A DNA stretch of 64,000 bases from an uncultured Candidatus Saccharibacteria bacterium (GCA_964426735.1 CAYRRP010000003.1:13378-77377); one strand, 5' to 3'; counted from the stretch's first letter, positions 1 to 35,068 are shown. Made by a program: numbers and translations. Notes: generated from the letters alone by a model not told the origin.

Positions 1-119
1 TCTCCCTCGAATTTTACTCGTCGTCACTCGTAAAATTCTGGGCACCGGAATCGCGACAAGCGCTGCTGCACTTGTAGACCGCGATTCCGTTCGAGCCCCA
101 ACGTAAAGCTCCGCTTTAC
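1..119 (-). ncRNA. tRNA-linked structured repeat element, copy A (truncated by window edge)
   Basis: Minus-strand reading gives hairpin GUAAAGC-GGA-GCUUUAC, then CGGAAUCGCG..CGCGAUUCCGGUGCCCAGA, hairpin with loop GAGUGACGACGA, then AUUCGAGGGAGA. Shares core and architecture with copies at 2154, 19599, 34741. Lies downstream of tRNA-Asp on same strand. Confidence 0.45.
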
Positions 120-120
120 T

Positions 121-175
121 TCACTCGCGCAAATAAAAAAGACACCTTACGGTGCTTTTTATTTGCGCGAGTGAT
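121..175. terminator. 19-bp perfect inverted repeat (TCACTCGCGCAAATAAAAA / TTTTTATTTGCGCGAGTGA) with inner GCACC..GGTGC hairpin and T-tract
   Basis: Direct inspection. Right arm is the 3' acceptor end of the minus-strand tRNA-Asp, so the tRNA 3' end is duplicated in inverted orientation. Inner hairpin plus U-run resembles an intrinsic terminator. Confidence 0.5.
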
Positions 176-239
176 GGGGCTCGAACCCACGGCCTCGTCC
201 GTGACAGGGACGCGCTCTAACCAGCTGAGCTACACCCGC
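166..239 (-). tRNA. tRNA-Asp (anticodon GTC)
   Basis: Reverse complement GCGGGTGTAGCTCAGCTGGTTAGAGCGCGTCCCTGTCACGGACGAGGCCGTGGGTTCGAGCCCCATCACTCGCG: 7-bp acceptor, D-arm GCTC/GAGC, anticodon loop CTGTCAC, T-loop TTCGAGC. CCA not encoded. Confidence 0.85.
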
Positions 240-341
240 AATATTTGCTTAACTAACCAAAACAGCTACCCTCTGCAATATTTGCTTAACTAACCAAAAC
301 AGCTACCCTCTGCAATATTTGCTTAACTAACCCTAAATACA
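238..341. repeat. 38-bp tandem direct repeat, ~2.7 copies (GCAATATTTGCTTAACTAACCAAAACAGCTACCCTCT)
   Basis: Two exact copies plus a partial third between two minus-strand tRNA genes. No intervening unique spacers. Confidence 0.8.
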
Positions 342-397
342 ACCAACTCAACCTATTATACATAAAATTGTATAATTTCAAAGAGGTTTCTATTTTG

Positions 398-468
398 TGT
401 CGATGAATGGAATCGAACCATTGTCTAAGGCTTATGAGTCCTTCGTTCTACCATTGAACTACACCGAC
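398..468 (-). tRNA. tRNA with CAT anticodon (Met elongator or Ile2/lysidine type)
   Basis: Reverse complement GTCGGTGTAGTTCAATGGTAGAACGAAGGACTCATAAGCCTTAGACAATGGTTCGATTCCATTCATCGACA: acceptor with G5-U68, D-arm GTTC/GAAC, anticodon loop CTCATAA, T-arm AATGG-TTCGATT-CCATT. G1-C72 pair and no GGG/CCC anticodon stem, so not initiator-like. Confidence 0.7.
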
Positions 469-525
469 AATATACACATATACATGTGCACACTACTATA
501 ACCTAAAAATTGGAAATACTCAAAC

Positions 526-1971
526 CTACTGCACCATATTCAACTTCTCTCGAGTCTTTGGTCCCACCTGTCCATACCCTGCTTGCCCACTTTTTGCAAG
601 ACCATATTTTACCTGAAATCGTCCGACTGCCTTCTGTGTTGCTGGACCAAAATACCCAGAGACCGTACCTTCGGGATACACCGCTTTATCTGTAGCCAAG
701 AATTTTTGCAACTCAGTAACATCCGCATTTCGAGTGCCCAGCTTGAGTAATTTTGTAAATAGAAATTTTTTTCTTGTAGCTGTATTTTGTATTGTGGTCA
801 CTGTTGTAGTAGCCGCACTTAACACAGATGTTGTCTGTTGTGGTATATACCCTTTTGGATACACGGTAACAAACACTTTTTGAGTATATATACCATCAAA
901 TCCTCCTCCTGGAAGTTGTGGGTACAATGTAAACGTTACGGTTTTTATGTCAGATGTAGTATTCATAAATGCTACCGTAGTACTACTATTTGGAAGATAC
1001 CCAACTTCTGAAATAATTTTATTACATGGAAACACTGAAGTACTTGTACTTGTTACAAAGGAAGCTGAAATACCTTCAACACAATCCATCTTCAACGTAA
1101 TAGCGTTTGTATACTTAGTCGACCAAAGGAGAGACACATTATCATCAGAAGCTACTTTTGGAGGAGTGGCTACGAAACTCAAAATCTGAGTTGGTGTAAT
1201 TTTTTCAGATCCCACATCAAAGATGATTGTCTCCGCATGAGTTTGATCATACGCACCATCGGTAATATACGGTAAAATAAGCATACTTGCAGAAGCAACA
1301 TCTACATTTTTATTCTTAAATACAAACACCATACTTCCTGACGGACTCTGTTTTGTTGAAAACATCGGAGTTCCACAAGGCAATGCTACAGAACCTCCTT
1401 CCAAAAACACACTTACACTGTCGACACAGCGAATACTAAAGTTTACACCATCGAGTTCTGTCGAAGTCCACTGTACAGTGGTTGTCGCACCCGAAGCTGT
1501 CGATGTTGCAGTGGTAAAAAATGAAGTGATAGGATAAGGCATCGTGAGCACTGATACACTACTACTCTGACCTACTGATGTATCTGTACCTGTTGAATCT
1601 TTTACGTAGAGTGTAAACGTGAGTAACTTTGTTGATCCGCTTGTATTCACAACAAAAAAACCAAGAGAATCTGATTCTTGTGTAGAAATAGTTGTTTTTG
1701 TATCACACGGAAACAAACTTCCATCTTGTTTTTTCACTTTTACACCAGGAACACATGAGACGATCAACGAAGCACCTGCGGCATCTGTCGCTGTCCACGC
1801 AACAGAGATAAGTTGCCCACTTGAGATAGTTGAGGGTGTTACTGTATACGATGTGATTTGTGGATTGGCAGCATGTGCGGTATGAGTAAAAAATAATGTA
1901 AAAAGAAAAAGAATTATTGTATATTTCATATATAAAATATAACACAAATACATAGTTGACACTGGGGACAA
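526..1971 (-). CDS. secreted Thr/Ser-rich surface protein with C-terminal peptidoglycan-binding-like domain
   Basis: N-terminal signal peptide (MKYTIILFLFTLFFTHTAHA). Long T/S-rich repeats. C-terminus LQKFLATDKAVYPEGTVSGYFGPATQKAVGRFQVKYGL resembles the PG_binding_1 fold. Confidence 0.5.
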   Translation of the reverse strand: MSPVSTMYLCYILYMKYTIILFLFTLFFTHTAHAANPQITSYTVTPSTISSGQLISVAWTATDAAGASLIVSCVPGVKVKKQDGSLFPCDTKTTISTQESDSLGFFVVNTSGSTKLLTFTLYVKDSTGTDTSVGQSSSVSVLTMPYPITSFFTTATSTASGATTTVQWTSTELDGVNFSIRCVDSVSVFLEGGSVALPCGTPMFSTKQSPSGSMVFVFKNKNVDVASASMLILPYITDGAYDQTHAETIIFDVGSEKITPTQILSFVATPPKVASDDNVSLLWSTKYTNAITLKMDCVEGISASFVTSTSTSVFPCNKIISEVGYLPNSSTTVAFMNTTSDIKTVTFTLYPQLPGGGFDGIYTQKVFVTVYPKGYIPQQTTSVLSAATTTVTTIQNTATRKKFLFTKLLKLGTRNADVTELQKFLATDKAVYPEGTVSGYFGPATQKAVGRFQVKYGLAKSGQAGYGQVGPKTREKLNMVQ

Positions 1972-2036
1972 TAGTGATCAATTTCATGATTAACACCTAG
2001 CATTTTTATGTTCTCTATGATATTCTTGTGCTACTA

Positions 2037-2105
2037 GCGGGGTGGAGTAATAGTAACTCACAAGGCTCATAACCTTGGGACCGGGGTGCAAATCCCTGCC
2101 CCGCA
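2037..2105 (+). tRNA. tRNA-Met-like (anticodon CAT), compact D-arm
   Basis: GCGGGGT acceptor pairing with GCCCCGC. D-stem GAGT/ACTC. Anticodon arm CAAGG-CTCATAA-CCTTG. T-loop TGCAAAT. Discriminator A. Short (about 69 nt), so the fold should be confirmed. Confidence 0.6.
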
Positions 2106-2110
2106 ACAAG

Positions 2111-2138
2111 AAAAAAATACAACAGAGTTGTATTTTGG
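2111..2138 (+). terminator. hairpin AAAAATACAAC-AGAG-GTTGTATTTT
   Basis: 10-bp stem with T-run, immediately after tRNA-Met. Confidence 0.4.
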
Positions 2139-2153
2139 GATTTGCAAGACGGA

Positions 2154-2254
2154 GCGGGGTACCCATCGAGCACGATGGGTCGCGAGTCGTGGTCAGAGAA
2201 TTTTTCGAGTGACGACGAGAAAAATATCTGTGACCAAATCCCTGCCCCGCAACA
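2154..2254 (+). ncRNA. tRNA-linked structured repeat element, copy B, embedded in a tRNA-like frame
   Basis: Starts GCGGGGTA (same as tRNA-Met 5' end). Then hairpin CCCAT-CGAGCACG-ATGGG, core CGCGAGTCGTGGTCAGA, hairpin with loop GAGTGACGACGAG. Ends GTGACCAAATCCCTGCCCCGCAACA, a direct repeat of the tRNA-Met 3' end at 2083-2108. Confidence 0.45.
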
Positions 2255-2258
2255 TGTA

Positions 2259-2291
2259 ACAAAAAACACCATACATTGTGGTGTTTTTTGT
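2259..2291. terminator. bidirectional intrinsic terminator AAAAAACACCA-TACATTG-TGGTGTTTTTTG
   Basis: Perfect stem flanked by A-run and T-run. Sits between plus-strand tRNA/element and the stop of the minus-strand gene ending at 2310. Confidence 0.6.
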
Positions 2292-2309
2292 TTGATATAA
2301 ACGCTCTAT

Positions 2310-3278
2310 CTATATAAACGAAAACTCTTTAAACACTTGTTCAAATAAACTAATAACTCTCCTTGCTTCTCGTTGAGTAAGTATAAAACTTGGATCATGA
2401 GCAATCTGATTTCTCACCTTATGCGCTTCCCATGCAAGATCAAGTGTATTGAAGTCACTTTTCTCTACCCCTTTCAATTTATCACCGATTGAATCCCCTT
2501 GTAGGTTCATAGTGTCGAGTAGTTCAGCGAGCATCATATCAGCTTCAATCACTGCAAGCCTCCATTCTGATTCATTATACGATTCAACATGCATTATAAC
2601 CTTATCCCAATTTTTATTTGTCGAAAGAGGAATTGAAATCGTCTCATCAGATACCTGATTGAGCTTCATCCTTATGTTATTTCTTACTCGAGTCAAGTCA
2701 TAGAGAATATATGCAATCATACCTGCAAATACTACAATAAGAAGCCATAGTATATATTTCATCCACCATGCAATCGTATGTAGGCCAAATAATATTCGTG
2801 TAACCAACGATGGTGTCCCTTCAACTAATGCAATATCTGATTCTTTCACCCATCCATCTGGGTCTTCCTCAAAATCAACATACCAGTATCGTTCACCATC
2901 AATAAATACCGGCCCTTGTTTGATTGTACCGCCAGATCGTTGATTCTGTGTACCTCGTTGTGTACCTCCTGGCTCAGTATACACAGCAACATCCGCCTCC
3001 ATCGCCACAACAGACGCACCAAGTGGACGAAGTGCTGATGCAACTGGACGAGTATACGAGTTGAGCAAATACCGCATCGTAAAACTTTTTCCGTTCAACC
3101 CTGAAACAAAATTGTTTGCTGATGTAAGTATTCCACCAAACAATGTCATAAATACAAATAACATGAAAAGCATCCCTGCGATTTCACGTAAAAAATTTGG
3201 TGCTTCCGCAGGTTTTTCTTCCGCCTTTGGTTTTGCATCCCCTTTTGGTTTATCGTCTTTTGGTTTTTCGTCAGCCAC
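2310..3278 (-). CDS. membrane protein with C-terminal HEPN-like domain (Rx4H motif)
   Basis: Lys/Glu-rich N-terminus, TM helix (~aa 35-60), ~110-aa loop, second hydrophobic block (ILFGLHTIAWWMKYILWLLIVVFAGMIAYILY). C-terminal ~120 aa contains AWEAHKVRNQIAHD, matching the HEPN Rx4-6H signature. No closer family recognised. Confidence 0.4.
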   Translation of the reverse strand: MADEKPKDDKPKGDAKPKAEEKPAEAPNFLREIAGMLFMLFVFMTLFGGILTSANNFVSGLNGKSFTMRYLLNSYTRPVASALRPLGASVVAMEADVAVYTEPGGTQRGTQNQRSGGTIKQGPVFIDGERYWYVDFEEDPDGWVKESDIALVEGTPSLVTRILFGLHTIAWWMKYILWLLIVVFAGMIAYILYDLTRVRNNIRMKLNQVSDETISIPLSTNKNWDKVIMHVESYNESEWRLAVIEADMMLAELLDTMNLQGDSIGDKLKGVEKSDFNTLDLAWEAHKVRNQIAHDPSFILTQREARRVISLFEQVFKEFSFI

Positions 3279-3343
3279 GTGAATAGATTAAAAGATTAAT
3301 GAACTATTTCATTATACAAGACTTTTAGATCCAAAAGAAACTT

Positions 3344-4762
3344 CTATTCTCCTAAGAAATCTTTACCTGCTTTAAAGAGATACTTCTCACCCATATGAGT
3401 TGCCATAAGTTGAATACCGAGAGGAAGCTCTGCATCACCGACTTTTGTTGTACCTGATGGAATAGAAAGTGCTGGAATACCTGCAATATTTGCAGTGACG
3501 GTAAAAATATCCGCAAGATACACGGAAAGCGGATCTTCTTTTTCTCCTATCTTCCATGCAGGCGCAGGAGTAGTCGGTGTAAGTACAATGTCAACAGACT
3601 GGAAAGCGGTTTTAAATTCCTCCTGGATAAGCGAACGTACAACTTCTGCTTTGCCATAAAATGAATCATAGTATCCTGCAGAAAGCACATATGTACCCAA
3701 GAGAATTCTTCGTCGTACTTCTTTTCCAAAACCAACACCTCGAGTCTTCATATAATCTTCGAGTAAATCTTTTCCATCTACATGAAGTCCGTATTTTACT
3801 CCGTCAAAACGAGCCAAGTTTGAAGATACTTCTGCAGGCATGAGAATATAGTAGACAGAAAGTGAAAGAGCAATATGCGGAAGAGAAATATCTTTTATTT
3901 CATAACCAAGTGATTTAAATTTCTCCACTGAAGTTTTGAAATTTTCTTTTACACTCTCATCGATTCCTTTTTCTTCCAACAGACTCCATGGCACACCGAT
4001 TGTAAGTGTTTTTTTATCTTCTACTTTCTCATAAGTAGATTCATCTACGGTAGTGCCATCATATGCATCTTTCCCTTTCATTGCATCAAAGAGTATCTCT
4101 GCATCACCTACTGTATATGTAATCGGACCAATCACATCAAGCGAAGAACCCATCGCCATAAGTCCGTGTCGAGAAATAGATCCATAGGTTGGTTTAAAGC
4201 CGACTACTCCACAAAATGCAGCAGGCTGTCGGACAGACCCACCCGTATCAGATCCGAGTGCTCCAAGTGCTAAGTGTCCAGCAACTGCAGCTACCGAACC
4301 ACCTGAAGATCCTCCAGCTACACGTGTCGTATCGACTGGATTTTTTGTTACACCAAAAGCCGAGTTTTCGGTCGAGCCTCCCATCGCAAACTCATCCATG
4401 TTTGCCCGCCCAAGAAACACAGCGCCTTGCGCTTTCAGTTTAGTGATCGCTGTTGCATCATATGGCGCAACATATCCTTCAAGAATCTTGGACGCAGCGG
4501 TAACCTTACGTCCTGTAATTAAAATATTATCTTTGATAGCAAGTGGAATACCGAGAAGTGGAGTTGACTCCCCTGCTTGTATTCTTTTGTCAGCAGCTTC
4601 TGCTTGAGCAAGTACATCATCATACACCTCAAGATATGCATTGAGTTCAGGGTTTTTCTTTTTGATCTCTTCTAGATATGCAGATGCAAGCTCAACCGCA
4701 GTTATTTCTTTACTGTCGAGCATTGTTCGAGCTTTTGTAATTGTGAGGTTTTTTAAATCCAT
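3344..4762 (-). CDS. gatA: Asp/Glu-tRNA amidotransferase subunit A
   Basis: Amidase signature GGSSGGSVAAVA and typical GatA N-terminus. Followed upstream by gatC. Confidence 0.9.
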   Translation of the reverse strand: MDLKNLTITKARTMLDSKEITAVELASAYLEEIKKKNPELNAYLEVYDDVLAQAEAADKRIQAGESTPLLGIPLAIKDNILITGRKVTAASKILEGYVAPYDATAITKLKAQGAVFLGRANMDEFAMGGSTENSAFGVTKNPVDTTRVAGGSSGGSVAAVAGHLALGALGSDTGGSVRQPAAFCGVVGFKPTYGSISRHGLMAMGSSLDVIGPITYTVGDAEILFDAMKGKDAYDGTTVDESTYEKVEDKKTLTIGVPWSLLEEKGIDESVKENFKTSVEKFKSLGYEIKDISLPHIALSLSVYYILMPAEVSSNLARFDGVKYGLHVDGKDLLEDYMKTRGVGFGKEVRRRILLGTYVLSAGYYDSFYGKAEVVRSLIQEEFKTAFQSVDIVLTPTTPAPAWKIGEKEDPLSVYLADIFTVTANIAGIPALSIPSGTTKVGDAELPLGIQLMATHMGEKYLFKAGKDFLGE

Positions 4763-4810
4763 AATGATATACGAATATGCGAATTAAATACTTACGAATG
4801 AATACGAATG
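4763..4810 (-). repeat. tandem ATTCGTA heptamer repeats (x4) between gatC and gatA
   Basis: Minus-sense reading: ATTCGTATTCATTCGTAAGTATTTAATTCGCATATTCGTATATCATT then ATG of gatA. Same heptamer recurs upstream of map and secY. Confidence 0.5.
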
Positions 4811-5092
4811 TTAGCCTAATATTTTTTTAACTTCCAAATAATTACCGTCTCGAGCAGGCGCATTGGTAAGGAGAGCTTCAGTGTACTCACCTTCTTTATT
4901 AAGTATTATGTCTTCTCGCATAACATTTCTCAAAGATGAGAGGGGTTTTACCGCCGTCTCAGATACTGAGGTAACCTGACTCACATAGCCCAAAATAGAC
5001 TCAATACTTTGAGCAAGCGCCTCTTTTTCTTCCTCAGATACTTTCATACGAGCAAGATCTGCAAGCTTTTCTATGTCTTTTTTCTCAATCAT
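4811..5092 (-). CDS. gatC: Asp/Glu-tRNA amidotransferase subunit C
   Basis: 93 aa with KVSEEEKEAL..SILGYV pattern typical of GatC. Directly upstream of gatA. Confidence 0.8.
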   Translation of the reverse strand: MIEKKDIEKLADLARMKVSEEEKEALAQSIESILGYVSQVTSVSETAVKPLSSLRNVMREDIILNKEGEYTEALLTNAPARDGNYLEVKKILG

Positions 5093-5130
5093 GTTCCTAT
5101 ACTACACTATTTTTTAGAATCCGTCAGGAA

Positions 5131-7616
<2,486 letters not shown>

Positions 7617-7617
7617 A

Positions 7618-8178
7618 TTATTGTGCCCAATTCCTTAATACAAGTGTCTGCGTATAATTTTTTGTTACATTTTGTGCTGTCCAGGATACCTGCACCACAA
7701 CAGACACTTCAGTGGCACTGATTGAAGTGATAGTTATTGATCGTTTATATTGAGTAGTTGATCCAGACACATATCCATATATACCTGAGGTGCTGTTGTA
7801 TAGCAAAGAAGGACATGATGCTGCTGTTGATGAACATGCAGTAATTGTGTTTGCAGCAACATCTACATAACATACTTTCCCGGTAGAACATGGATCACCT
7901 GCAACCTGAGCTACTCCCGTAAGCCATCCTACCGAACCTCCTGTTGCAAGTGCATTGATATGAGCAATTGCATTGGAATCTCTCCTGTGACGTATATATT
8001 CAAGTGCTTCATCAGCAAGATAATACGCAACTGTCTGATCTTCTGTAAAATTTGTTGCTCGCATCGCATTTGAAACCGCAGTAAATGTTGCCAAAATAGA
8101 AATCGACAAAATCGATACCGCTACAAGTACCTCTACCAATGTAAAACCATATATGTGTGTATGTCGTGTTGTATGCAT
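7618..8178 (-). CDS. prepilin-type minor pilin
   Basis: N-terminus GFTLVEVLVAVSILSI matches the prepilin cleavage/methylation motif (G/FTLxE). Confidence 0.7.
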   Translation of the reverse strand: MHTTRHTHIYGFTLVEVLVAVSILSISILATFTAVSNAMRATNFTEDQTVAYYLADEALEYIRHRRDSNAIAHINALATGGSVGWLTGVAQVAGDPCSTGKVCYVDVAANTITACSSTAASCPSLLYNSTSGIYGYVSGSTTQYKRSITITSISATEVSVVVQVSWTAQNVTKNYTQTLVLRNWAQ

Positions 8179-8179
8179 G

Positions 8180-19508: not shown

Positions 19509-19598
19509 GGAGGAATCGCATAGCGGCCTAGTGCAGCGGTTTACTAAACCGCCATACTCGAAAGAGTATCGAGAGTTCGAATCTCTCTTCCTCCGCCA
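19509..19598 (+). tRNA. type II (long variable arm) tRNA; anticodon loop TTACTAA parses as ACU (Ser-like, unusual A34)
   Basis: GGAGGAA acceptor, D-arm GCAT/GTGC, anticodon stem GCGGT/ACCGC with 7-nt loop TTACTAA, variable hairpin ATACTC-GAAA-GAGTAT, T-arm GAGAG-TTCGAAT-CTCTC, encoded CCA. A second Ser(GCU) tRNA exists at 19036. Confidence 0.6.
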
Positions 19599-19800
19599 AA
19601 AAATCGTATTTGGGCGATTTTGCGTGAGAGAGAATACTCTGCTGTTAGCAGAGTATGTCGAGATTCGAACAACGGAGCGATTCTTGTTTTAACAAAAACA
19701 GGACGCGAGTCGGTGCCCAGACTAAAAATTTCTGACGAGAAATTTTTAAGTCGAGGGAGAAACTCTCACTCTCTCCGTATTGACAATTTAGTATCGGATG
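19599..19800 (+). ncRNA. tRNA-linked structured repeat element, copy C
   Basis: Hairpin AAAATCG..CGATTTT, hairpin ATACTCTGC-TGTTA-GCAGAGTAT, TTCGAACAACGGAGCGATTC, hairpin TGTTTT-AAC-AAAACA, core CGCGAGTCGGTGCCCAGA (19704-19721), stem AAAAATTTC-TGACGA-GAAATTTTT, AAGTCGAGGGAGA. Directly follows the tRNA at 19509-19598. Confidence 0.45.
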
Positions 19801-25859: not shown

Positions 25860-25910
25860 GGCTTTCATACTCATTGATTTCCGTTATTAAGATAAGATAC
25901 ACTTCCCTGT

Positions 25911-27275: not shown

Positions 27276-27315
27276 TTTTTTATACCACTATAAACCGCTA
27301 TACTGAGGGCTATAT

Positions 27316-29478: not shown

Positions 29479-29483
29479 ATAAG

Positions 29484-29516
29484 AAACCGCCGTGTCTGAA
29501 AAACTCGGCGGTTATA
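29484..29516 (+). terminator. intrinsic terminator AAACCGCCG-TGTCTGAAAAACT-CGGCGGTT
   Basis: GC stem right after the recG stop codon. Confidence 0.5.
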
Positions 29517-29551
29517 CAATCTAAAATCATTGATTGGTTGTTTAGTTCACA

Positions 29552-29896
29552 TTAGTTTACTGTAACTTTTTTAGCACCTTCGATAAAATTGAGTGCCTCA
29601 GCTATCATTTCCATGTCAAGCTCAAATCCAGGTATTTCACAATGAGCTTCGTTTAGATTCATAATGACTGTTTGCACTTCAGGTATAACTAACTCATCTG
29701 CATCTGGCAACAGAGATGCATCAATTTGAGAACGAAGTATTTTCGCATCTGCTGGTGTGATAACGGAATGCTTAAGTCCACTTTCAACCATATATCGTGC
29801 GTAAGGTTTAGACCAGACTACAAAATACTCACCTGTCGAGTTAGTAATCTTGGCAAAACGGCCACAAGATGAGACCTCTAATTTTGCTAATCCCAT
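29552..29896 (-). CDS. hypothetical protein (114 aa)
   Basis: ORF only. Confidence 0.35.
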   Translation of the reverse strand: MGLAKLEVSSCGRFAKITNSTGEYFVVWSKPYARYMVESGLKHSVITPADAKILRSQIDASLLPDADELVIPEVQTVIMNLNEAHCEIPGFELDMEMIAEALNFIEGAKKVTVN

Positions 29897-29926
29897 TTGA
29901 CATCTTCCTTTCCAAATTGAACACTA

Positions 29927-30817
29927 ATGTATTTTTTGAAAAAGCACAAGAGTATGATATACATATCATTCATGCATTTTAGAATTCTCAAAAAAATTGG
30001 ATTTGTTCTTTTAATTATCTTCGCACTTATCGGCGCAGGTTTTACAGGAATGTATTTTGCAATCAAATGGGGCTGGACAAATACTCGCGGAGCGATTGAT
30101 ATGCAACGTGATGCATTTCTTCAAAGCGGCAAAGCTCAGACTGCAAATGTTATCGGAGCTACTCCGGAAAAAAAATATTGGCAAACCACAGAAGAATGGT
30201 ACGTGTTGAAAAATGCACTCACGAAAGACAAAGCAGTCCTCTATAGAGCAGCGTCAGCGTCTGGTGTATCCCCTCGCCTTATCGCATCACAGCTTGTAGT
30301 AGAACAACTTCGCATGTTTAATTCAGATCGCGAATCATACAAAAAGTTTTTTTCACCACTAAAGATTCTTGGTAGCCAGACTCAATTCTCTTGGGGCGTT
30401 ATGGGTATCAAACGCGAGACAGCACTGGTGATAGAAAAAAATCTCAAAGACACCGCCTCTCCGTATTACCTCGGTGCACAATACGAACACCTCCTTGATT
30501 TCCATACAACAGATATAGAAAACGAACGATTTGCTTTTATGACAAATCAGCATGATCACTATGGAAGCTACCTCTACGCAGGATTGTACTTACGACAATT
30601 TATGCAGCAATGGAAATCTGCAGGTTTTGATATATCAAAACGAGTAGATATTTTAGCCACACTCTATAACATCGGGTTTAATGGATCAAAACCAAATGCG
30701 AACCCACAGTCAGGTGGCGCACAAATCACAATCGGCAACAGAACATATAGCTTTGGCTCTCTTGCTCAAGAGTTTTATGATTCAAATGAACTTTTGGATG
30801 AGTTTCCGAGAAACTAA
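29927..30817 (+). CDS. membrane-anchored hypothetical protein (296 aa)
   Basis: N-terminal TM helix (IGFVLLIIFALIGAGFTGMYFAI) and large C-terminal domain of unknown function. Confidence 0.35.
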   Translation: MYFLKKHKSMIYISFMHFRILKKIGFVLLIIFALIGAGFTGMYFAIKWGWTNTRGAIDMQRDAFLQSGKAQTANVIGATPEKKYWQTTEEWYVLKNALTKDKAVLYRAASASGVSPRLIASQLVVEQLRMFNSDRESYKKFFSPLKILGSQTQFSWGVMGIKRETALVIEKNLKDTASPYYLGAQYEHLLDFHTTDIENERFAFMTNQHDHYGSYLYAGLYLRQFMQQWKSAGFDISKRVDILATLYNIGFNGSKPNANPQSGGAQITIGNRTYSFGSLAQEFYDSNELLDEFPRN

Positions 30818-30835
30818 TTTAGTTTTGTGGTCACT

Positions 30836-30890
30836 CGAAAAATTCCTCGACCTGGACTCGAACCAGGGACCAATTTATTATGAAAATCTC
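30836..30890 (-). ncRNA. tRNA-like 3' fragment fused to partial copy (E) of the tRNA-linked element
   Basis: Minus-sense GATTTTCATAATAAATTGGTCCCTGGTTCGAGTCCAGGTCGAGGAATTTTTCGAGTGACCAC. Has a T-arm CCTGG-TTCGAGT-CCAGG, then GTCGAGG and GAATTTTTCGAGTGAC matching the element hairpin-3 sequence of copy B. Confidence 0.3.
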
Positions 30891-30894
30891 AGAG

Positions 30895-30966
30895 TCCACC
30901 CACCACGACTCGAACGTGGGACCCCCGAGGTATAAGCTCGATGCTCTAACCAACTGAGCTATGGGT
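30895..30966 (-). tRNA. tRNA-Ile (anticodon TAT)
   Basis: Reverse complement CCACCCATAGCTCAGTTGGTTAGAGCATCGAGCTTATACCTCGGGGGTCCCACGTTCGAGTCGTGGTGGGTGGA: acceptor CCACCCA/TGGGTGG, D-arm GCTC/GAGC, anticodon loop CTTATAC (UAU), T-arm CCACG-TTCGAGT-CGTGG. Confidence 0.65.
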
Positions 30967-31019
30967 GGACTCTATTATTTTCAAAACAAAATCTATATAA
31001 GCTCGAGTCACGAGTCAAA

Positions 31020-31117
31020 ATCTACTGACTTTGCTTGCAACCCCGCCTCGCACCGTCGTGCTCCGGCCTTGCGAGCCGATAACATCGACTCTCACTCTAC
31101 CAACTGAGCTACACGCG
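31020..31117 (-). ncRNA. tRNA-like 5' half (CCGCGTG-TA-GCTCAGTTGGTAGAGT...) with aberrant 3' portion; possible pseudo-tRNA or intron/insert-containing tRNA
   Basis: Canonical acceptor and D-arm at 31089-31117 (minus). No matching T-arm or acceptor 3' strand found within 100 nt. Confidence 0.25.
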
Positions 31118-31156
31118 GATATGTTATAATTAAGACCAACTTAAAGTAACATAAAT

Positions 31157-31411
31157 ATGAACAAAAATAAACTTTGGTTTAAAGCAAAAATGTACGGATG
31201 GGGTTGGCAACCGACTTCATGGGAAGGATGGGCTGTGCTCGCACTCTATATTACAGCAATATGGATTAATGCTCGAAACATTGATTTCTATGCACATTCT
31301 GCAAGCGACACTCTTATCAATGGAGTGATCCCTTTGGTTATCAATACCATTTATTTACTGATTATTTGTTACTGTCGAGGTGAAAGACCTCGATGGAGAT
31401 GGGGTAAATGA
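31157..31411 (+). CDS. small membrane protein (84 aa)
   Basis: Two hydrophobic segments. Trp-rich N-terminus. Confidence 0.3.
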   Translation: MNKNKLWFKAKMYGWGWQPTSWEGWAVLALYITAIWINARNIDFYAHSASDTLINGVIPLVINTIYLLIICYCRGERPRWRWGK

Positions 31412-31417
31412 GATTAA

Positions 31418-31458
31418 TACAAAAGCCTAGCGGACAAAGCTACATCCGCTAGGCTTTT
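31418..31458. terminator. strong bidirectional terminator AAAGCCTAGCGGA-CAAAGCTACA-TCCGCTAGGCTTTTTTT
   Basis: 13-bp stem with flanking A/T runs. Confidence 0.6.
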
Positions 31459-31459
31459 T

Positions 31460-31642
31460 TTAGTTAATACCATCGACCGACACCTCGTCAATCGATTGAA
31501 ATTGTTTACCACAACTACGGCAAACAAAGACACCATCCCGAAAAAAGACTTCGCCGGCACAGTCCTCGCCCCGCCGGTATGGCTCAGCACAGAAACCAAT
31601 CCTTTCCATGCAATACCCAACGAGAGAGCCCTCGACAATGGT
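31460..31642 (-). CDS. small zinc-ribbon protein P2 (61 aa from MTIVEG) with own promoter and SD
   Basis: Cys pairs GYCMERIGFC and VCRSCGK. AGGAAGGAGG 7 nt upstream of ATG. Elevated GC. Confidence 0.45.
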   Translation of the reverse strand, partial: TIVEGSLVGYCMERIGFCAEPYRRGEDCAGEVFFRDGVFVCRSCGKQFQSIDEVSVDGIN

Positions 31643-31645
31643 CAT

Positions 31646-31720
31646 TAACGATCCTCCTTCCTTTACCAAGATATCAATACGTTCCCTAAATTGTCAACTA
31701 AACACTACACCTACAGGTGT
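31646..31720 (-). promoter_or_regulatory. hairpin, TTGACA/TGATAT promoter and SD for P2
   Basis: Minus-sense AACACTACACCTGTAGGTGTAGTGTT hairpin, then TTGACAATTTAGGGAACGTATTGATATCTTGGTAAAGGAAGGAGGATCGTTA-ATG. Confidence 0.4.
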
Positions 31721-31765
31721 AGTGTTAGAACTTTTACAAGCAACATTGGTTAAATTTTGGAAGTT

Positions 31766-33706
31766 TTACACTTGGTGCTCAATGTCTAATTTCTTTTTAA
31801 CCGTAACCCCATGAGCAACCAACAGCGTTTCGAATTCATCACGTTCCATTGTCTCTGTTTCCATCAGACGTTTAGCGATCGCATCAAGAAGTTTTTTATT
31901 TGCTTCGATTGTTGTTTTTGCTTTCTCCTCAGCCTCTTTCATAATCTTTGAAATTTCTGCATCCACTTCCGCTGCTACTTTTTCAGAATATCCTTCAGAC
32001 TCTACTCCCCGACCAAATAACACTTTTCCTCCACTTCCCTCCAGTGCTATTGGCCCAAGCTTATCTGACATACCGTACTTAGTCACCATATCTCGCGCGA
32101 GTGCAGTCGATACCTGGAGATCATTTGATGGTCCTGTAGTCAAATCATCAAACATCATTTTCTCTGTCACATACCCACCGAGCGAGACTGCTATGTCATC
32201 GAGAAATTCTTTTCGAGACTGGAGTTTTTTATCTTCAATAGGAAGCTTGAGTACATATCCTGCTGCACGTCCTCGAGAAATAATCGAAATCTTATGCACC
32301 GGATCAGCATATGAAAGAAGTGATGCAAGTACCGCATGCCCTGCTTCATGATAAGCTGTGATTTCTTTTTCTTTCTTTGAAAGAATATGACTCTTTCGCT
32401 CAGGCCCAAGCATCACCTTTTCGATAGAGCGAATCAGGTCGTACTGAGAAATCTTGGTACGATTTTCTCGTGCTGCCAAGATCGCTCCTTCATTCATGAG
32501 TGAGTATAAGTCTGCACCAGAAAATCCTGGTGTACGCTCTGCTATTACTTTTATATTTACATCTTCTGCAAACGGTTTCTTTTTTGCATGAACATTAAGA
32601 ATTGCTTCTCGATCATCTCGGTCAGGAAGATCAAGTGTCACTCGACGATCAAAACGTCCCGGTCGAAGGAGTGCCGGATCAAGTACATCTGGTCTGTTGG
32701 TCGCTGCCATGACGATCACTTTTTCATTTGGCTCAAAACCATCCATCTCTACGAGGATTTGGTTTAAGGTCTGCTCTCGCTCATCATTGCCCCCACCCGC
32801 ACCGACTCCTCGCACGCGTCCTACCGCATCGATCTCATCAACGAAAATAATTGCCGGAGAATTTTTCTTTGCCATCATAAAGAGATCTCGAACACGAGAT
32901 GCTCCCACACCCACGAACATTTCTACGAATTCAGATCCAGAGATTGAAAAGAATGCAACACCTGCCTCCCCTGCTACCGCACGAGCAAGGAGTGTCTTTC
33001 CGGTACCTGGTGCTCCCATCAGAAGGATTCCTTTTGGAATACGTGCACCGATTTCAAGAAACTTCTTTGGATTTTTTAGAAAGTCCACAATTTCTGAAAG
33101 CTCTTCCTTTGCTTCTTTTGCACCAGCCACGTCTTTAAAAGTTACTCGCTGAGAGCTGTCGTTTGGATCGATCATACGAGCTTTTGACTGTCCGAAAGTA
33201 AATGCTTGTGCTCCTGCACCTTTCACCTGTCGAGTCATGTACCAGATGAAAAGAAGGACGAAAATAATCGGGACAAGAAGTGGAGCGAGATTCATCACCC
33301 AGTATCCAAACCCTGATTCATTTTTGATATCTACTTTTACTTTTCCAAGCTCCGCCGGAGTAGTACCGTAGTTTGAAAGTGTATCAGTGAGTGCAGTACC
33401 CTCTTCTTTTTTAGTAAACTTCTTATCACCATTTGCATACACCATATCGAGTGAGTCACCCTTTACCACGATCTCAGTCACCTGCCCCGCCTTAATATCA
33501 AGTGCAAGCTGTGAAAGCGGAATTTCTGTCGTTGTACTTTTTTTCCCACTTAAAAAAGAATACACACCTGAAAGAAGGAGGAAAATCAAAAGTATAGTAG
33601 CAACATAATTAAAAACAGATACTTCACCAGGACCTTTTTGCTCAGGCACTTTCTTTTGCATATTCTTTTTATCTTTGTTTTTTGGTGGTTTAGTGTTTGG
33701 ATTCAT
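31766..33706 (-). CDS. ftsH: ATP-dependent zinc metalloprotease FtsH
   Basis: Two N-terminal TMs, AAA Walker [18 protein letters not shown] zinc site. Confidence 0.9.
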
Positions 33707-33763
33707 GGGGGTATTATAGCGTATTTAGGTGATGAAATACATCATTTCTGCTAGACTAGAGAC

Positions 33764-34207
33764 ATGAGCCTTATTACAAACAAAAAAATCCATTTTAATT
33801 ATGAGATTACCGAGACAATACCTGCCGGTATTGAGCTTTTTGGCTTTGAAGTAAAATCATTACGTAATGGACAAGGTTCTCTCGACGGCTCATATGTGAC
33901 CGTGCGCGGCGGCGAAGCATTTGTGATCGGTATGCAAATCCCAGCATATCAAGTCGGAAATACACCGAAAGAGTACGATCCACTTCGTAATCGCCGACTC
34001 CTCCTCAACAAAAAGGAGATTGCTCGATTGGGAGAGATAGAATCACGAAAGGGATTGACAATAGCACCTATTTCAGTGTATAATAAAGGCAAGGTTTTGA
34101 AGGTAGATCTCGGTATTGCGACTGGTAAAAAGAAGTTTGATAAACGTGAGACTACAAAGAAACGAGAAGTCGACCGCAATACCCGAAGAGAGTTTGTTGA
34201 TCGATAG
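33764..34207 (+). CDS. smpB: SsrA-binding protein
   Basis: Conserved SmpB core (GIELFGFEVKSLR...NRRLLLNKKEI) and basic C-terminal tail. Confidence 0.85.
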   Translation: MSLITNKKIHFNYEITETIPAGIELFGFEVKSLRNGQGSLDGSYVTVRGGEAFVIGMQIPAYQVGNTPKEYDPLRNRRLLLNKKEIARLGEIESRKGLTIAPISVYNKGKVLKVDLGIATGKKKFDKRETTKKREVDRNTRREFVDR

Positions 34208-34245
34208 TAAAATTGAGTACATTGAAAAGAGAAACCCGAGTCCCA

Positions 34246-34702
34246 ACTTGCTCAGAATATTTCTGATCAAATTGGGGGTGCCAGGTTTTGACATAGTCTG
34301 CATCCGTTCGCGCACTACAGAGTTCCAGTCAACTCTTTAAACATCTGGAAACTATACGTGTAAACAATACTGTTGCACGAGCAAAAGCTTCTGTTTCTCC
34401 ATATTTTGGAGTTAACAACTTTGCTTTCTCTTACGCACGAGCTTAATTTAAGTTTCGTCCCTAGGAGGGGGTGATACATCCGATATCTCATACGATGTCT
34501 CATTCATATAACTGTGAGGTCCGGTCACTTCCCTGTTTCAGGTTGTGACCTAAAAAATGAAACTCGCCTTTTTCTTGTTTTGTTTGTTTTATAGAGAAAA
34601 AGTCTAAACGTTAAAACATTCTATGTAGTGTAGACCCGTTCGTATTCTCTCTATGCACGTGGCTTCGATGTCACCACTTCCACAAATTACAAAAAAAACT
34701 GC
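34246..34702 (+). ncRNA. ssrA: candidate tmRNA (ssrA), 3' end uncertain
   Basis: Immediately downstream of smpB. 5' end GGGGGUGCCAGGUUUUGACAUAG matches the tmRNA acceptor-plus-GGxUUCGAC consensus. Possible 3' strand CACUUCC+A gives G3-U70. T-loop-like UUCGAUG at 34669-34675. Possible tag ORF ...GVNNFAFSYARA-stop around 34405-34440. Confidence 0.45.
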
Positions 34703-34733
34703 TCAAGGCAGTTTTTTTGTAATTTGTGGAAGT
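34675..34733. terminator. 26-bp perfect inverted repeat with A8/T8 tracts and loop TCAAGG
   Basis: CTTCCACAAATTACAAAAAAAACTGC-TCAAGG-GCAGTTTTTTTTGTAATTTGTGGAAG. Left arm overlaps the putative tmRNA 3' end. Confidence 0.6.
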
Positions 34734-34740
34734 GAGCAAA

Positions 34741-34866
34741 GCGGAGCTTTGCGTGTGCATCGAAGCCAACGGAGCGAGGGCTCCCATCACCAGATGGGAC
34801 CGCGAGTTGGTGCCTAGACTTTTCCGAGCGACGGCGAGGAAAAAGTCGAAGGTTCAATGTCACCAT
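34741..34866 (+). ncRNA. tRNA-linked structured repeat element, copy D1
   Basis: Hairpin GCAAAGC-GGA-GCTTTGC (compensatory to copy A GTAAAGC/GCTTTAC), AACGGAGCGA, hairpin CCCATC-ACCA-GATGGG, core CGCGAGTTGGTGCCTAGA, stem with loop GAGCGACGGCGAG, AAGTCGAAGGTTCAATGTCACC. Confidence 0.4.
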
Positions 34867-34879
34867 TAAAAACATGTTT

Positions 34880-35068
34880 TGCGAGTGGTATTGAAACGGC
34901 GGAACGATTCCTGATTTAGCAAAATCAGGACGTGAGCCGGTGAGAAGTGATGTTATCACTTCGCAAGACCTTGCCAGAATTTTTCAGAGCAAAGCGAATG
35001 AAAAAATCGACAAGGTGTACTGTTCCTGTAAGGAAACCAGACACTCAGTCGAAGGTTCAATGCCACCA
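34880..35068 (+). ncRNA. degenerate tandem second copy (D2) of the element, with an insertion
   Basis: AACGGCGGAACGATTC, hairpin CCTGATTT-AGCA-AAATCAGG, CGTGAGCCGGTG..CCAGA with inserted hairpin AGTGAT-GTTA-TCACT. Ends CAGTCGAAGGTTCAATGCCACC. Confidence 0.35.

Follow-up and report, generated by a model that had tools for sequence, protein, structure and literature searches.

In this study, we describe a family of small (~120–190 nt), protein-less elements located at the 3' ends of tRNA and tmRNA genes, of which five copies lie in a 64,000 nt stretch of DNA (the window) from an uncultured Candidatus Saccharibacteria bacterium. Selection acts on the fold of the element as read on the tRNA-sense strand, and the family is restricted to the Patescibacteria (CPR), with the exception of one MAG labelled Flavobacteriaceae. 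We favour, with moderate confidence, the explanation that it is a non-autonomous cassette which targets tRNA 3' ends for insertion and is cotranscribed with the tRNA, since direct repeats often end exactly at the tRNA end, arrays occur in either order, an empty site exists and one insertion lies within an operon.

Copies in the window

A sequence-only reading of the window had reported repeated structured elements, and these are real: a covariance model applied without filters to the full window recovers exactly five copies (E 3e-34 to 3e-11; Table 1), the first score below them being 5.8 bits, and the core string CGCGAGTYGGTGCCYAGA occurs twice where 0.03 occurrences are expected by chance. 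All five lie downstream of a tRNA or tmRNA gene on the same strand, as had been claimed, with tRNA-Asp, tRNA-fMet, tRNA-Ser(ACT) and tmRNA as hosts. Most tRNA genes of the window, and its tmRNA gene, are closely followed by an element. A sixth item, previously listed as a fragment of the family (30836–30890, minus strand), is undetected by the model and is a scrambled remnant rather than a copy, in which 16 nt match the long stem of copy B exactly and lie next to the 3' part of another tRNA, comprising its T arm (CCTGG/CCAGG) and acceptor. The starts of the elements also had to be moved further 5', because the anti-tRNA arm is part of the element.

The inverted repeat of the tRNA-Asp 3' end noted earlier for copy A was recovered: 121–139 and 156–174 are 100% complementary, 89–100 is the exact reverse complement of tRNA-Asp 175–186, and the hairpin at 132–164 is the apex of a long palindrome of tRNA-Asp 3' end and anti-tRNA arm. 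Copy B is indeed framed by a duplicated tRNA-Met segment, a 20 nt direct repeat at 2089–2108 and 2235–2254, the latter being a copy of tRNA nt 56–76, and its anti-T arm is the reverse complement of 2087–2096. In copy C, 19660–19670 is the reverse complement of 19575–19585, and copy D contains the inverted repeats 34662–34697/34712–34747 and 34660–34670/34758–34768. The 3' arm of copy E is 95% identical to that of copy D, and the subtype of copy E recurs behind tmRNA at three other loci (L031, L036 and L069).

Table 1. Elements in the window, their parts and their host genes
Feature	Position	Strand	Parts	Evidence or remark
tRNA-Asp(GTC), host of copy A	165–239	−		ARAGORN; Rfam tRNA 66.3 bits
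A/U-flanked, bidirectional terminator-like hairpin between tRNA-Asp and copy A	132–164	−		Inverted repeat
Copy A, whole	1–131	−	Anti-acceptor 121–131; small hairpin 101–120; anti-T 89–100; core 1–88	3' arm outside window start
Copy A, model match	1–100	−		cmsearch 44.8–52.7 bits; truncated by window start
tRNA-Met(CAT), initiator-like (tRNA-fMet), host of copy B	2036–2107	+		ARAGORN; Rfam
Copy B, whole, variant type	2109–2254	+	Hairpin 2114–2136; anti-T arm 2137–2146; core 2147–2234; direct repeat 2 2235–2254	cmsearch; repeats; orthologues in L060, L101
Copy B, model match	2136–2256	+		65.9 bits, E 1.6e-19
tRNA-Ser (anticodon ACT), host of copy C	19509–19598	+		ARAGORN; Rfam tRNA 50.1 bits
Copy C, whole	19599–19779	+	Hairpin 19599–19621; anti-acceptor 19622–19633; small hairpin 19634–19656; anti-T 19659–19670; core 19671–19761; tRNA-like 3' arm 19762–19779	cmsearch
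Copy C, model match	19659–19779	+		111.8 bits, E 3e-34
Scrambled remnant downstream of tRNA-Ile(TAT) 30894–30968	30836–30890	−		Sequence reading
smpB, precedes tmRNA gene	33764–34207			SmpB Pfam match
tmRNA gene, host of copies D and E	34274–34685	+		Rfam RF00023 61.3 bits
Copy D, whole	34686–34866	+	Terminator hairpin 34686–34723; anti-acceptor 34724–34734; small hairpin 34735–34754; anti-T 34755–34767; core 34768–34851; tmRNA-like T-arm/acceptor copy 34852–34866	cmsearch; inverted repeats
Copy D, model match	34756–34874	+		77.8 bits, E 2.5e-23
Copy E, whole, tandem second element, different subtype from D, composite	34867–35068	+	Type-1-like 5' half 34886–34940; inserted hairpin; 'type 2' motif 35013–35032; 3' arm 35047–35068	cmsearch
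Copy E, model match	34886–34967	+		40.2 bits; degenerate, composite, extends to ~35068

Shared architecture and covariation

On the tRNA-sense strand, the element consists of an A/U-flanked hairpin, a 5' arm reverse-complementary to host tRNA nt 53–64, a core, and a 3' arm repeating tRNA nt ~57–76 in direct orientation, often with a 2 nt bulge. In many copies the reverse complement of the acceptor 3' strand stands ahead of the anti-T arm, and a small hairpin is inserted between the two, precisely at the acceptor/T-stem boundary. The core comprises a helix with tandem G.A pairs, C(G/A)AC-G-GA-GCG / CGC-GA-GU(C/U)G, a variable hairpin with an AGCA-type loop, a GUG junction, and a long stem, rich in A/U, that contains a bulged A, ends in a GACG loop and closes via CCY-A-GNC / GNC-GR-RGG. 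The 5' arm pairs with the 3' arm, and therefore the sense strand forms a three-way junction, whose closing helix copies the acceptor/T-stem minihelix of the adjacent tRNA. The 5' arm follows non-palindromic T-loop variants (GGGAAUCGGAC for UCCGAUU, CAGGCUUGAAC for UUCAAGC); the 3' arm matches the tRNA exactly from T-loop nt 57–60 on, and in at least eight loci this identity ends no more than 2 nt from the tRNA end, like att identity blocks. A second, unrelated core family has the same arm design. The architecture first read from the window described the elements but missed that the arms are an inverted and a direct copy of the T-loop-to-3'-end segment of their own tRNA.

The fold held up in the preset test for covariation in a larger alignment (48 sequences, 20 modelled pairs): 97.6% of the cells are paired, compensatory double changes occur in 19 of the 20 pairs, none of 500 shuffles reached the observed values and slid controls collapse. 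Both stem examples given earlier, GCAAAGC/GCUUUGC versus GUAAAGC/GCUUUAC and CCCAGAC..GUCGAGGG versus CCUAGAC..GUCGAAGG, are correct. Of 48 copies, 42 have a more stable fold on the sense strand than on the reverse complement, with a mean difference of 4.6 kcal/mol, and the modelled pairs include 26 G.U versus 3 A.C, indicating strand-specific folding. Where 3' arms have drifted (L029, L110, L066), changes outside the stretch paired with the 5' arm are arbitrary, and those within it are C-to-U only, so that G.U is retained, which argues for selection on the closing helix.

Distribution

Confinement of the family to this contig, for which a test had been set in advance, does not hold, as many Patescibacteria MAGs and metagenome contigs carry it; 60 copies were found beyond the window, giving 65 model matches overall, with 15 tRNA isotypes and tmRNA as hosts. 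Covariation and this wide spread support the earlier proposal of a tRNA-linked ncRNA or a mobile module at tRNA 3' ends. Every genome-collection match with a taxon label comes from a Patescibacteria MAG, save the one labelled Flavobacteriaceae (L052); three MAGs (5 loci) among these matches carry no taxon label. Thirty-eight of the 65 matches follow a co-oriented ARAGORN tRNA at a distance of at most 120 nt, 10 lie behind tmRNA and 6 are later members of tandem arrays. The remaining 11 comprise 6 at contig ends or beside masked sequence, one located 1.45 kb from its tRNA (L113), three without a recognisable upstream tRNA (L052, L242, L256), and L069 7465–7584, which has no ARAGORN gene upstream and is assigned to none of these classes. 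The impression that the element is unlike known RNA families was borne out in that no family in Rfam 15 matches it, and no description of it was found in the literature searched.

Evidence for insertion and transcription

The orthologous tRNA-fMet site is empty in L043 and occupied in the window, L060 and L101. At L070 the original 4 nt spacer and then the next tRNA come after the distal repeat, marking an insertion within an operon; the next tRNA begins 4–16 nt past the element in L070, L248 and L265, and with such a placement inside tight tRNA operons the element must be transcribed. Tandem arrays contain different subtypes in either order, tmRNA-D-E in the window, L031 and L069 and tmRNA-E-D in L036, with further arrays at L102, L011, L060 and L263. 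At L113, a cargo-bearing insertion of 1.45 kb separates the tRNA from an older element, and decayed copies are represented by window copy E, the sixth item (F) and L001. These observations suggest that the element is both transcribed and inserted. Searches inside the elements and next to them yielded no recombinase, so the mechanism of mobilisation is one that we infer and mobilisation itself is unproven; across 33 loci, no recurrent proteins were found except syntenic housekeeping genes.

According to the cassette model, the unit would have entered the tRNA gene between its T-loop and its 3' end, like tRNA-targeting integrative elements, supplying a replacement 3' end and the hairpin, while the original 3' end would be displaced to become the distal repeat. 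As it is non-autonomous, the cassette would require mobilisation in trans, and the recombination machinery would recognise the conserved core, along with the helix that the inverted and direct tRNA copies form, as a folded single strand, like integron attC sites or CTX-phage attP(+). Alternatively, the same structure may be a tRNA-like processing scaffold for the transcript. Thereafter, copies may persist vertically, decay, exchange modules by gene conversion or be lost via recombination between the direct repeats.

Several points count against insertion. If the crossover is in the T-loop, the putative attP (..GGGAGA) differs from attB (..GGUUC) to its left, whereas known T-loop integrases use the symmetric T-stem; tRNA-targeting elements are not known to have an inverted tRNA copy; and one integrase usually has one tRNA target, while more than 15 tRNAs are used here. 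Retargeting is unexplained under the insertion reading, as both arms would need to change for a new tRNA. Much of the pattern is consistent with vertical descent: elements that are orthologous between genomes and sit at the same tRNA align end to end (e.g. L015 versus L030, 75–80%), gene conversion can account for cores shared within one genome (L015/L038; window copies A and B), and perfect tandem units (L263, L004) could stem from unequal crossing-over. In the thermodynamic optimum of the read-through transcript the 5' arm pairs with the tRNA itself, which would come at a cost to the host.

Alternative explanations

A serious rival, although one we consider rather unlikely, is a resident, host-useful tRNA-like ncRNA that is co-transcribed with the tRNA and works as a partner specific to it, for instance as chaperone, decoy or sensor of this cognate tRNA or as a tRNA scaffold by which a payload RNA is stabilised. 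The repeats would then serve mimicry or pairing rather than being insertion scars, patchiness would be due to loss and arrays to duplication, and RNase P and RNase Z would release the RNA because its closing helix mimics the acceptor/T-stem minihelix. Phylum-wide purifying selection on structure on the transcribed strand and obligatory transcription within tRNA operons agree with such a role, as do the invariant unpaired or non-canonical motifs (tandem G.A, GUG, GACG), the branch hairpin exactly at the acceptor/T-stem junction and the one scaffold common to two core families. Same-tRNA orthologues are moreover conserved across genomes, with the 5' arm kept while the neighbouring hairpin sequence drifts, and 3' arms are fully tRNA-identical even in diverged orthologues (L038/L116). 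However, a terminator-like hairpin precedes most copies, and occupancy is patchy, with 40 of 74 tRNA/tmRNA genes occupied in loci that were selected for carrying a copy and 1 of 6 in locus L248. Subtype arrays in either order, decayed copies and the empty L043 site also speak against a resident RNA; in addition, the element leaves the T-loop of the tRNA unmimicked and erases the G.U identity pairs of the acceptor, and we can name no function for it.

It is improbable, in our estimation, that the element is a guide-bearing mobile RNA whose 5' arm (anti-T with or without anti-acceptor) pairs with the tRNA gene or tRNA and directs insertion, carried out either by an enzyme acting in trans or by the core of the RNA itself, as in IS110 bridge RNAs or the EBS/IBS pairing of group II introns. 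This idea would account for a 5' arm that complements T-loop nt 53–56, missing from its own 3' arm, crosses the repeat boundary at nt 56/57 and tracks tRNA-specific variants, for near-identical cores with different arms in one genome (L005a/b) and for the more than 15 tRNA targets; as nt 53–61 are near-universal, hopping between tRNAs would need few guide changes, fixed by heteroduplex repair. We know of no precedent, however, for a 100 nt RNA inserting into DNA. The search for an associated recombinase, reverse transcriptase or nuclease gave none, gene conversion can account for the core sharing, and repeats ending exactly at the tRNA 3' end suit a carried replacement end over a target-site duplication. 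Group II introns, furthermore, are reported to be absent from Patescibacteria (PMC13011429).

We regard as very improbable a small self-cleaving or self-splicing ribozyme or intron in the T-loop, with the 5' arm as internal guide and the 3' arm as 3' exon, even though group I introns are known to occupy the T-loop of tmRNA (PMC13011429). The guide-like arm adjoins the conserved junction and, on our reading of the sequence, tandem G.A pairs flanking a helix resemble hammerhead cores, but no Rfam ribozyme or intron model matches up to E 10, the core is much smaller than group I introns, and the upstream tRNA is already complete, which makes splicing unnecessary. The junction strands also fit none of the known hammerhead, twister, pistol or hatchet consensus sequences.

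Disfavoured and hardly credible are inert scars, that is attR-side remnants of larger, mostly deleted prophages or integrative elements from tRNA genes, although tRNA 3' ends are integration hot spots here (the L113 island; a foreign tRNA fragment at 30846–30873 in the window) and direct tRNA-3'-end repeats flank the elements. One compact architecture with precise ends is seen 65 times, its stems showing compensatory substitutions and G.U pairs that are strand-specific; the elements are free of gene remnants, and no true matches were found in the 2.9 million viral contigs of IMG/VR.

Comparison with known systems

Read as insertion cassettes, the elements share with tyrosine-integrase elements of tRNA and tmRNA genes (T-loop sublocation) and with integrase-less CIMEs the insertion in the 3' part of the gene, a carried 3'-end copy that leaves the gene intact, direct repeats that begin in the T-loop and end with the tRNA, tandem accretion, and both empty and occupied sites. 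They differ in measuring only 120–190 nt without an integrase or any gene, in adding an inverted copy of the tRNA 3' end, in having a conserved, covarying, strand-specific fold, and in that one family uses more than 15 different tRNAs and no mimic of the T-stem 5' strand stands to the left of the repeat. With integron attC and CTX-phage attP(+) sites they have in common stems that conserve structure over sequence, a strand-specific fold and an imperfect hairpin of inverted repeats with small bulges; in CTX, two inverted target-like sites enclose a ~90 nt spacer, much as the inverted and direct arms enclose the core here. The cassettes lack the R''/R' GTTRRRY consensus, however, any link to IntI or Xer would be hypothetical, the core has long invariant blocks and RNA-typical non-canonical motifs, and tRNA genes take the place of attI or dif as targets.

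Like MITEs (Correia/NEMIS, RPEs), the cassettes are small and non-coding with terminal inverted repeats, their transcripts fold into hairpins, and genomes hold many copies; unlike in MITEs, the inverted repeats are the 3' end of the adjacent tRNA rather than a fixed transposase-binding sequence, placement is strictly site-specific and co-oriented, and an internal three-way junction is conserved. The coaxial acceptor/T-stem minihelix, branched at the junction, recalls tRNA-like structures (the tmRNA domain, YrlA/Y RNA modules, viral TLS), and the elements are plausible substrates of RNase P, RNase Z or CCA-adding enzyme. Here, though, a 95 nt core replaces the T-loop, and the helix copies the neighbouring tRNA, not a generic one, with a 5' strand that is a perfect complement, so that the G.U identity pairs are lost. 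In contrast to IS110/IS1111 bridge (seek) RNAs and TnpB/IscB omega RNAs, the cassettes adjoin no recombinase or nuclease gene, show no Rfam or sequence similarity to these RNAs, and form a three-way junction with terminal arms rather than two internal guide loops or a scaffold with one guide; they do resemble them as element-encoded structured RNAs with sequence complementary or identical to the flanking target, a likeness which would make targeting programmable.

Copies of the element in the window

The elements downstream of the tRNA and tmRNA genes form a real, strand-specific and covarying family. A covariance model of the element (R1), built from 34 copies, was run on the window with filters off and gave five matches, with nothing else above 5.8 bits, which bears out the claim of the sequence-only reading that multiple copies are present. 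The core string occurs twice in the window against an expectation of 0.03. As had also been claimed, every copy in the window lies 3' of a tRNA or the tmRNA gene on the same strand, and the two repeats described earlier are exact: copy B, at tRNA-fMet, is framed by a direct repeat of a tRNA-Met segment (2089-2108 and 2235-2254), and the 3' end of tRNA-Asp recurs in inverted orientation beside copy A (121-139 with 156-174 and 89-100 with 175-186). The stretch 30836-30890(-), which had been taken for a fragment of a copy, is none; it consists of a 3' fragment of another tRNA and 16 nt identical to the long stem of copy B. This orphan fragment (30846-30873(-)) comprises a variable region, a T arm (CCTGG/CCAGG) and the acceptor strand TCGAGGA and mismatches the adjacent tRNA-Ile, which suggests an older integration or rearrangement at the site. 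The window itself has a GC content of 0.40, six tRNA genes and one tmRNA gene, and a housekeeping content that includes smpB followed by the tmRNA, ftsH, type IV pilus genes and ribosomal proteins. Among the loci fetched from Patescibacteria MAGs and metagenome contigs (designated L plus a number), its nearest relatives are Parcubacteria and Zambryskiibacteria MAGs, since the tmRNA loci L031 and L069 are near-identical to its own.

Positions of the R1 matches in the window and of the second core family
Feature	Locus	Position	Strand	Remark
Copy A	window	1-100	-	R1 match, truncated at window edge
Copy B	window	2136-2256	+	R1 match
Copy C	window	19659-19779	+	R1 match
Copy D	window	34756-34874	+	R1 match
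Copy E	window	34886-34967	+	R1 match; continues to about 35068
Second core family	window	35013-35032		nested in copy E
Second core family	L015	560-760	-	
Second core family	L018	1780-1799	-	
Second core family	L030	250-420		
Second core family	L245	8496-8515		
Second core family	L263	5230-5606	-	two perfect 160-nt tandem units behind tRNA-Ser(GCT)

Fold of the core

According to RNAalifold and R1 the core folds as a three-way junction. In the helix P2, C(G/A)AC-G-GA-GCG pairs with CGC-GA-GU(C/U)G, and the G or A before ACGG covaries with the C or U in GAGUYGG (26 G-C and 7 A-U pairs). In the subtype represented by copy E both half-helices of P2 are changed (GGC/GCC and ACG/CGU), with the bulged G and the tandem G.A pairs kept. 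P3 is the variable hairpin, usually with an AGCA-type loop, and the junction sequence is GUG. At the base of P4, CCY-A-GNC forms the opening strand and GNC-G(A/C)-RGG the closing one, with covariation at the Y-R and N-N pairs. The helix extends into a long stem rich in A/U, which contains a bulged A and ends in a GACG loop, and a second tandem G.A often lies beneath this loop. The arrangement is not that of a kink-turn, in that tandem GA/GA lies between covarying helices but the bulge is a single G and not three nucleotides.

The earlier proposal that selection acts on the structure holds at the level of single pairs. In an alignment of 48 sequences, which was fitted to R1 and therefore somewhat inflates the figures, 97.6% of the cells are in standard pairs and 19 of the 20 pairs are changed on both sides. 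None of 500 shuffled controls of the 48 sequences reached the observed covariation values, pairing fell to 27-49% when the partners were shifted by 1-3 columns, and the same compensatory pairs are present in a plain MAFFT alignment. It is the tRNA-sense strand that folds in this way. Its minimum free energy is better than that of the reverse complement in 42 of the 48 copies, by a mean of 4.6 kcal/mol, and the modelled pairs include 26 G.U against 3 A.C. These results, together with the absence of a T-stem or cloverleaf from the reverse complement, led to the rejection of a reversed tRNA and of an opposite-strand gene.

The tRNA-matched arms

The ends of the element are inverted and direct copies of the 3' segment of the host tRNA. 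On the 5' side, P2 is preceded by 12 nt that are reverse-complementary to nt 53-64 of the tRNA to which the element belongs; arms reading GGGAAUCGGAC stand next to tRNAs that have a UCCGAUU T-loop, and arms reading CAGGCUUGAAC adjoin tRNAs with a UUCAAGC T-loop. The arm follows these non-palindromic variants and is therefore an inverted copy rather than a degenerate direct one. A direct tRNA duplicate that has degenerated and taken up an insertion in its T-loop could thus be discarded, also because acceptor G.U pairs become A-U. Ahead of the 5' arm, many copies have a segment that is reverse-complementary to the acceptor 3' strand, and a small hairpin that is conserved in part (consensus A-GCAAAnC...GnUUUGC-G); this hairpin stands between the anti-acceptor and anti-T segments and therefore exactly at the acceptor/T-stem boundary. 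The anti-acceptor segment runs into the complement of the genomic trailer and not into UGG, which excludes a retrovirus-like primer-binding site for a mature tRNA.

On the 3' side, the GGGA of the core leads into a stretch that repeats the tRNA in direct orientation, beginning at T-loop nt 57-60 and ending at the discriminator. The match extends even to nt 57-59, where all four of the four elements beside UUCAAGY T-loops have AAAG and not GAGA or GAAA, and in about half of the copies two extra nt, an A and then a pyrimidine, follow nt 59. When paired, the two arms form a closing helix with the same acceptor/T-stem stack as the neighbouring tRNA. A long palindrome runs from the tRNA 3' end through the hairpin in between to the 5' arm, and the 3' arm is a direct repeat of the tRNA 3' end. 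Where 3' arms have drifted (loci L029, L110 and L066), the stretch paired with the 5' arm contains only C-to-U changes, by which pairing is preserved as G.U, and the unpaired acceptor part has substitutions of every kind; this small sample supports the view that the closing helix is under selection. In the thermodynamic optimum of a transcript of tRNA plus element, the 5' arm pairs with the tRNA itself. Co-transcriptional folding would need to favour pairing within the element for the closing helix to form.

Distribution and linkage to tRNA genes

A scan of one genome per species for 185,579 species with the pattern ACGGAGCG-N18-34-CGCGAGTYGGTG gave at least about 35 true elements, and a stricter pattern found 17 further elements in metagenome contigs. 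With the exception of three MAGs that have no taxon label and one contig assigned to a Flavobacteriaceae bin, the family is restricted to Patescibacteria among the genome-scan matches listed, the true ones being labelled as Patescibacteria, Parcubacteria, Saccharibacteria, Zambryskiibacteria, Taylorbacteria or Minisyncoccia MAGs; the other matches are chance occurrences in high-GC genomes. In 2.9 million viral contigs the strict pattern produced three identical chance matches in a high-GC coding region, on which basis a phage-borne attP module was rejected, and no element was among the loci listed from a looser scan of viral contigs. Several genomes have two or three loci at different tRNAs, such as Ala, Thr and Tyr in the genome SF2_12.

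Thirty-eight of 65 R1 matches lie at most 120 nt downstream of a same-strand tRNA called by ARAGORN, 10 follow a tmRNA and six are second or third members of tandem arrays. A further six are at contig ends or beside masked sequence, one is 1.45 kb from its tRNA, three have no recognisable upstream tRNA, and one (L069 7465-7584), without an upstream ARAGORN gene, was left unclassified. Fifteen tRNA isotypes are used in addition to tmRNA. Occupancy is high but partial, with 40 of 74 tRNA/tmRNA genes occupied in loci that were chosen for holding a copy, and isotypes that are occupied in one genome may be free in another.

A hairpin and a tRNA-3'-like end, in which neither ARAGORN nor Rfam recognises a tRNA, stand upstream at three loci (L256 6360-6480(-), L242 1125-1353(-) and L052 926-1000(-)). 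The first two have the block ACAGTTCTRAYNTCCTCCACTA in common just before the acceptor 3' strand, and these may be intron-containing or otherwise interrupted tRNA-His or tRNA-Asp genes.

Inheritance, transcription and signs of insertion

The family is transcribed at least in operon contexts and undergoes gain, loss and array formation in tandem. At three loci (L070, L248 and L265) the next tRNA begins 4-16 nt past the element, and the element must therefore be transcribed. Vertical persistence is seen at tRNA-Ala, where L015 and L030 align throughout at 75-80% across both tandem units and are therefore orthologous, which excludes independent insertion. Four tRNA-Thr(GGU) loci have common flanking genes and have kept the 5' arm, next to which the hairpin retains its form although its sequence has diverged. 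In the tRNA-Tyr orthologues L038 and L116 the P3 differences are compensated and the 3' arm is identical to the tRNA in both. Single modules are also shared within genomes: P3 is identical and P4 different between L015 and L038, and one P4 sequence is common to copies A and B and the remnant F beside tRNA-Ile(TAT). Such sharing fits gene conversion through conserved blocks, and for this reason we do not accept within-genome identity of cores as proof of transposition.

The direct repeats, of variable length (15-63 nt overall, 20 nt for copy B), start at T-loop nt 57-60 and end at most 2 nt from the tRNA 3' end in at least eight loci (L043, L038, L119, L098, L061, L102, L047 and L080); repeats of 41-63 nt occur where units are in tandem (L009, L071 and L085). 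These boundaries fit those of integrators at tRNA genes that restore the gene with their own copy of its 3' end. At the initiator tRNA locus, compared in four syntenic related genomes, L043 has the tRNA and terminator only and is thus empty, whereas the window, L060 and L101 have a B-type element. In L070 the element lies within a tRNA operon: the proximal repeat copy is followed by the element's own A6/U6 hairpin, and the distal repeat by the original AAAA spacer and then tRNA-Thr(CGT). Tandem arrays mix subtypes in both orders, tmRNA-D-E in the window, L031 and L069 against tmRNA-E-D in L036, and the array in L102 has three units. A second core family, with the helix ACCUGU/ACAGGU followed by GUACnGnnYCnGUAAG, is built with arms of the same design, down to the small hairpin and the 2-nt insertion (see table).

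At one locus (L113 4854-6306) a 1.45-kb segment separates tRNA-Ser(UGA) from an older element whose arms match that tRNA. It contains two unannotatable ORFs, a trypsin-like gene fragment and a 242-aa ORF without a Pfam match, and at its far end, just before the element, a diverged tRNA 3' copy (CCCACACTCCCCGCA). The segment has the look of a decayed island that had integrated at this tRNA.

Discussion

No description of the element was found in the literature searched. At gathering thresholds, Rfam 15 recognised only tRNA and tmRNA in the window and four loci, and when copies C, D and E were searched at E-values as high as 10, nothing came up but spurious matches to miRNA or sRNA hairpins on the terminator palindrome, which rules out a known RNA family. 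The elements contain no ORF. Neither the comparison of 33 loci nor Pfam searches of 30 neighbour and window proteins gave a recombinase, transposase, reverse transcriptase or nuclease linked to them, and all-against-all clustering of the ORFs from the 33 loci gave no recurrent neighbour beyond syntenic housekeeping genes; a linked recombinase was rejected on this basis.

We favour, with an even balance of belief and doubt, the reading that the element is a non-autonomous cassette. Such a cassette, without an enzyme of its own, would insert into the T-loop-to-3'-end segment of a tRNA gene, restore the tRNA and then persist. The folded arm helix and conserved core might be its recognition or recombination substrate, by analogy with attC or CTX attP(+), or alternatively a putative tRNA-like processing scaffold. 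The element behaves like tRNA-targeting integrative elements of the tyrosine integrase type, with which it has in common direct repeats that run from the T-loop to the tRNA 3' end, and a site, tRNA-fMet, that exists both with and without the element; however, these carry an integrase gene or have a demonstrable one in trans, and none was found in the element or its neighbours in the 33 loci. MITEs are equally tiny and gene-less and have fixed terminal inverted repeats, a target-site duplication of fixed length and a cognate transposase; inverted arms are present here, though tRNA-derived and varying with the host tRNA, the repeat length is variable, and no transposase was found. The R''/R' boxes of integron attC sites (RYYYAAC/GTTRRRY) are absent from the consensus, so that the strand-specific fold and its bulges are comparable to attC by analogy only. 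We file the element with site-specific elements at tRNA genes or with tRNA-like RNAs.

That it is instead a resident, functional tRNA-like RNA seems to us rather doubtful, though it deserves consideration beside the transcription and orthologous persistence described here. A tRNA-like structure has an acceptor/T-stem minihelix with a T-loop and is processed by RNase P/Z or the CCA-adding enzyme. The element has a minihelix and a branch at nt 65/66 as predicted from sequence, the core stands in the place of the T-loop, and the Rfam tRNA model does not match. It is unlikely that the element and the second core family are a new, Patescibacteria-specific class of programmable mobile cassettes without protein genes, guided by structure or RNA. 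In such a scheme a three-way-junction nucleic acid would bear antisense and sense copies of the tRNA T-loop-to-3'-end segment and might use them for insertion behind any tRNA or tmRNA gene, either in the role of a guide or by mimicking the target duplex in folded form; the near-universal T-loop sequence could permit hopping between tRNA species. A guide-bearing mobile RNA is likewise improbable; in it the tRNA-matched 5' arm would serve as the guide. IS110 bridge RNAs are encoded beside a DEDD/Tnp recombinase gene and have two internal loops that carry target and donor guides; the element has no adjacent gene and is a three-way junction with terminal arms. A small ribozyme or intron with putative catalysis is very improbable; copies C-E have no Rfam match to group I introns or small self-cleaving ribozymes even up to E=10. 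A paper on group I introns in Patescibacteria tRNAs (PMC13011429) deals with introns of the anticodon loop. Inert integration scars would account for direct repeats and hardly for covarying pairs, and we give this explanation next to no credence.

If confirmed, these findings would mean that a major phylum with tiny, streamlined genomes has, behind its tmRNA gene and a large part of its set of tRNA genes, a structured element matched to each tRNA. As a compact, gene-less unit of about 100 nt, it would be a candidate for insertion at tRNA genes in a site-specific and perhaps reprogrammable manner, or alternatively may be a natural tRNA-scaffolded small RNA. R1 is usable as a phylum marker. Prediction of tRNA genes, the calling of att sites and prophage boundaries, and assembly will all be led astray by the duplication of tRNA 3' ends and by the long palindromes. 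The assemblies at L004 and L005 are masked by N runs or broken exactly at tandem element arrays, and element repeats probably fragment Patescibacteria MAGs at tRNA genes.

A route is also opened to the study of how far tRNA operons tolerate large structured spacers. The apparent operon spacer between tRNA-Asp(-) and tRNA-Met(-) in the window contains three tandem 37-nt repeats (238-348), two identical and the third 78% identical. Directly after copy E there is a near-consensus promoter (TTGACA, 17 nt, TATAAT; 35082-35110), which precedes a 160-aa ORF (35130-35612) without a Pfam match. A tRNA-Ser with the anticodon ACT recurs in several Patescibacteria genomes (window 19509-19598, L005 5498-5585 and L263 2993-3080), each time with an element beside it; an unmodified A34 would be unusual for a bacterial tRNA.
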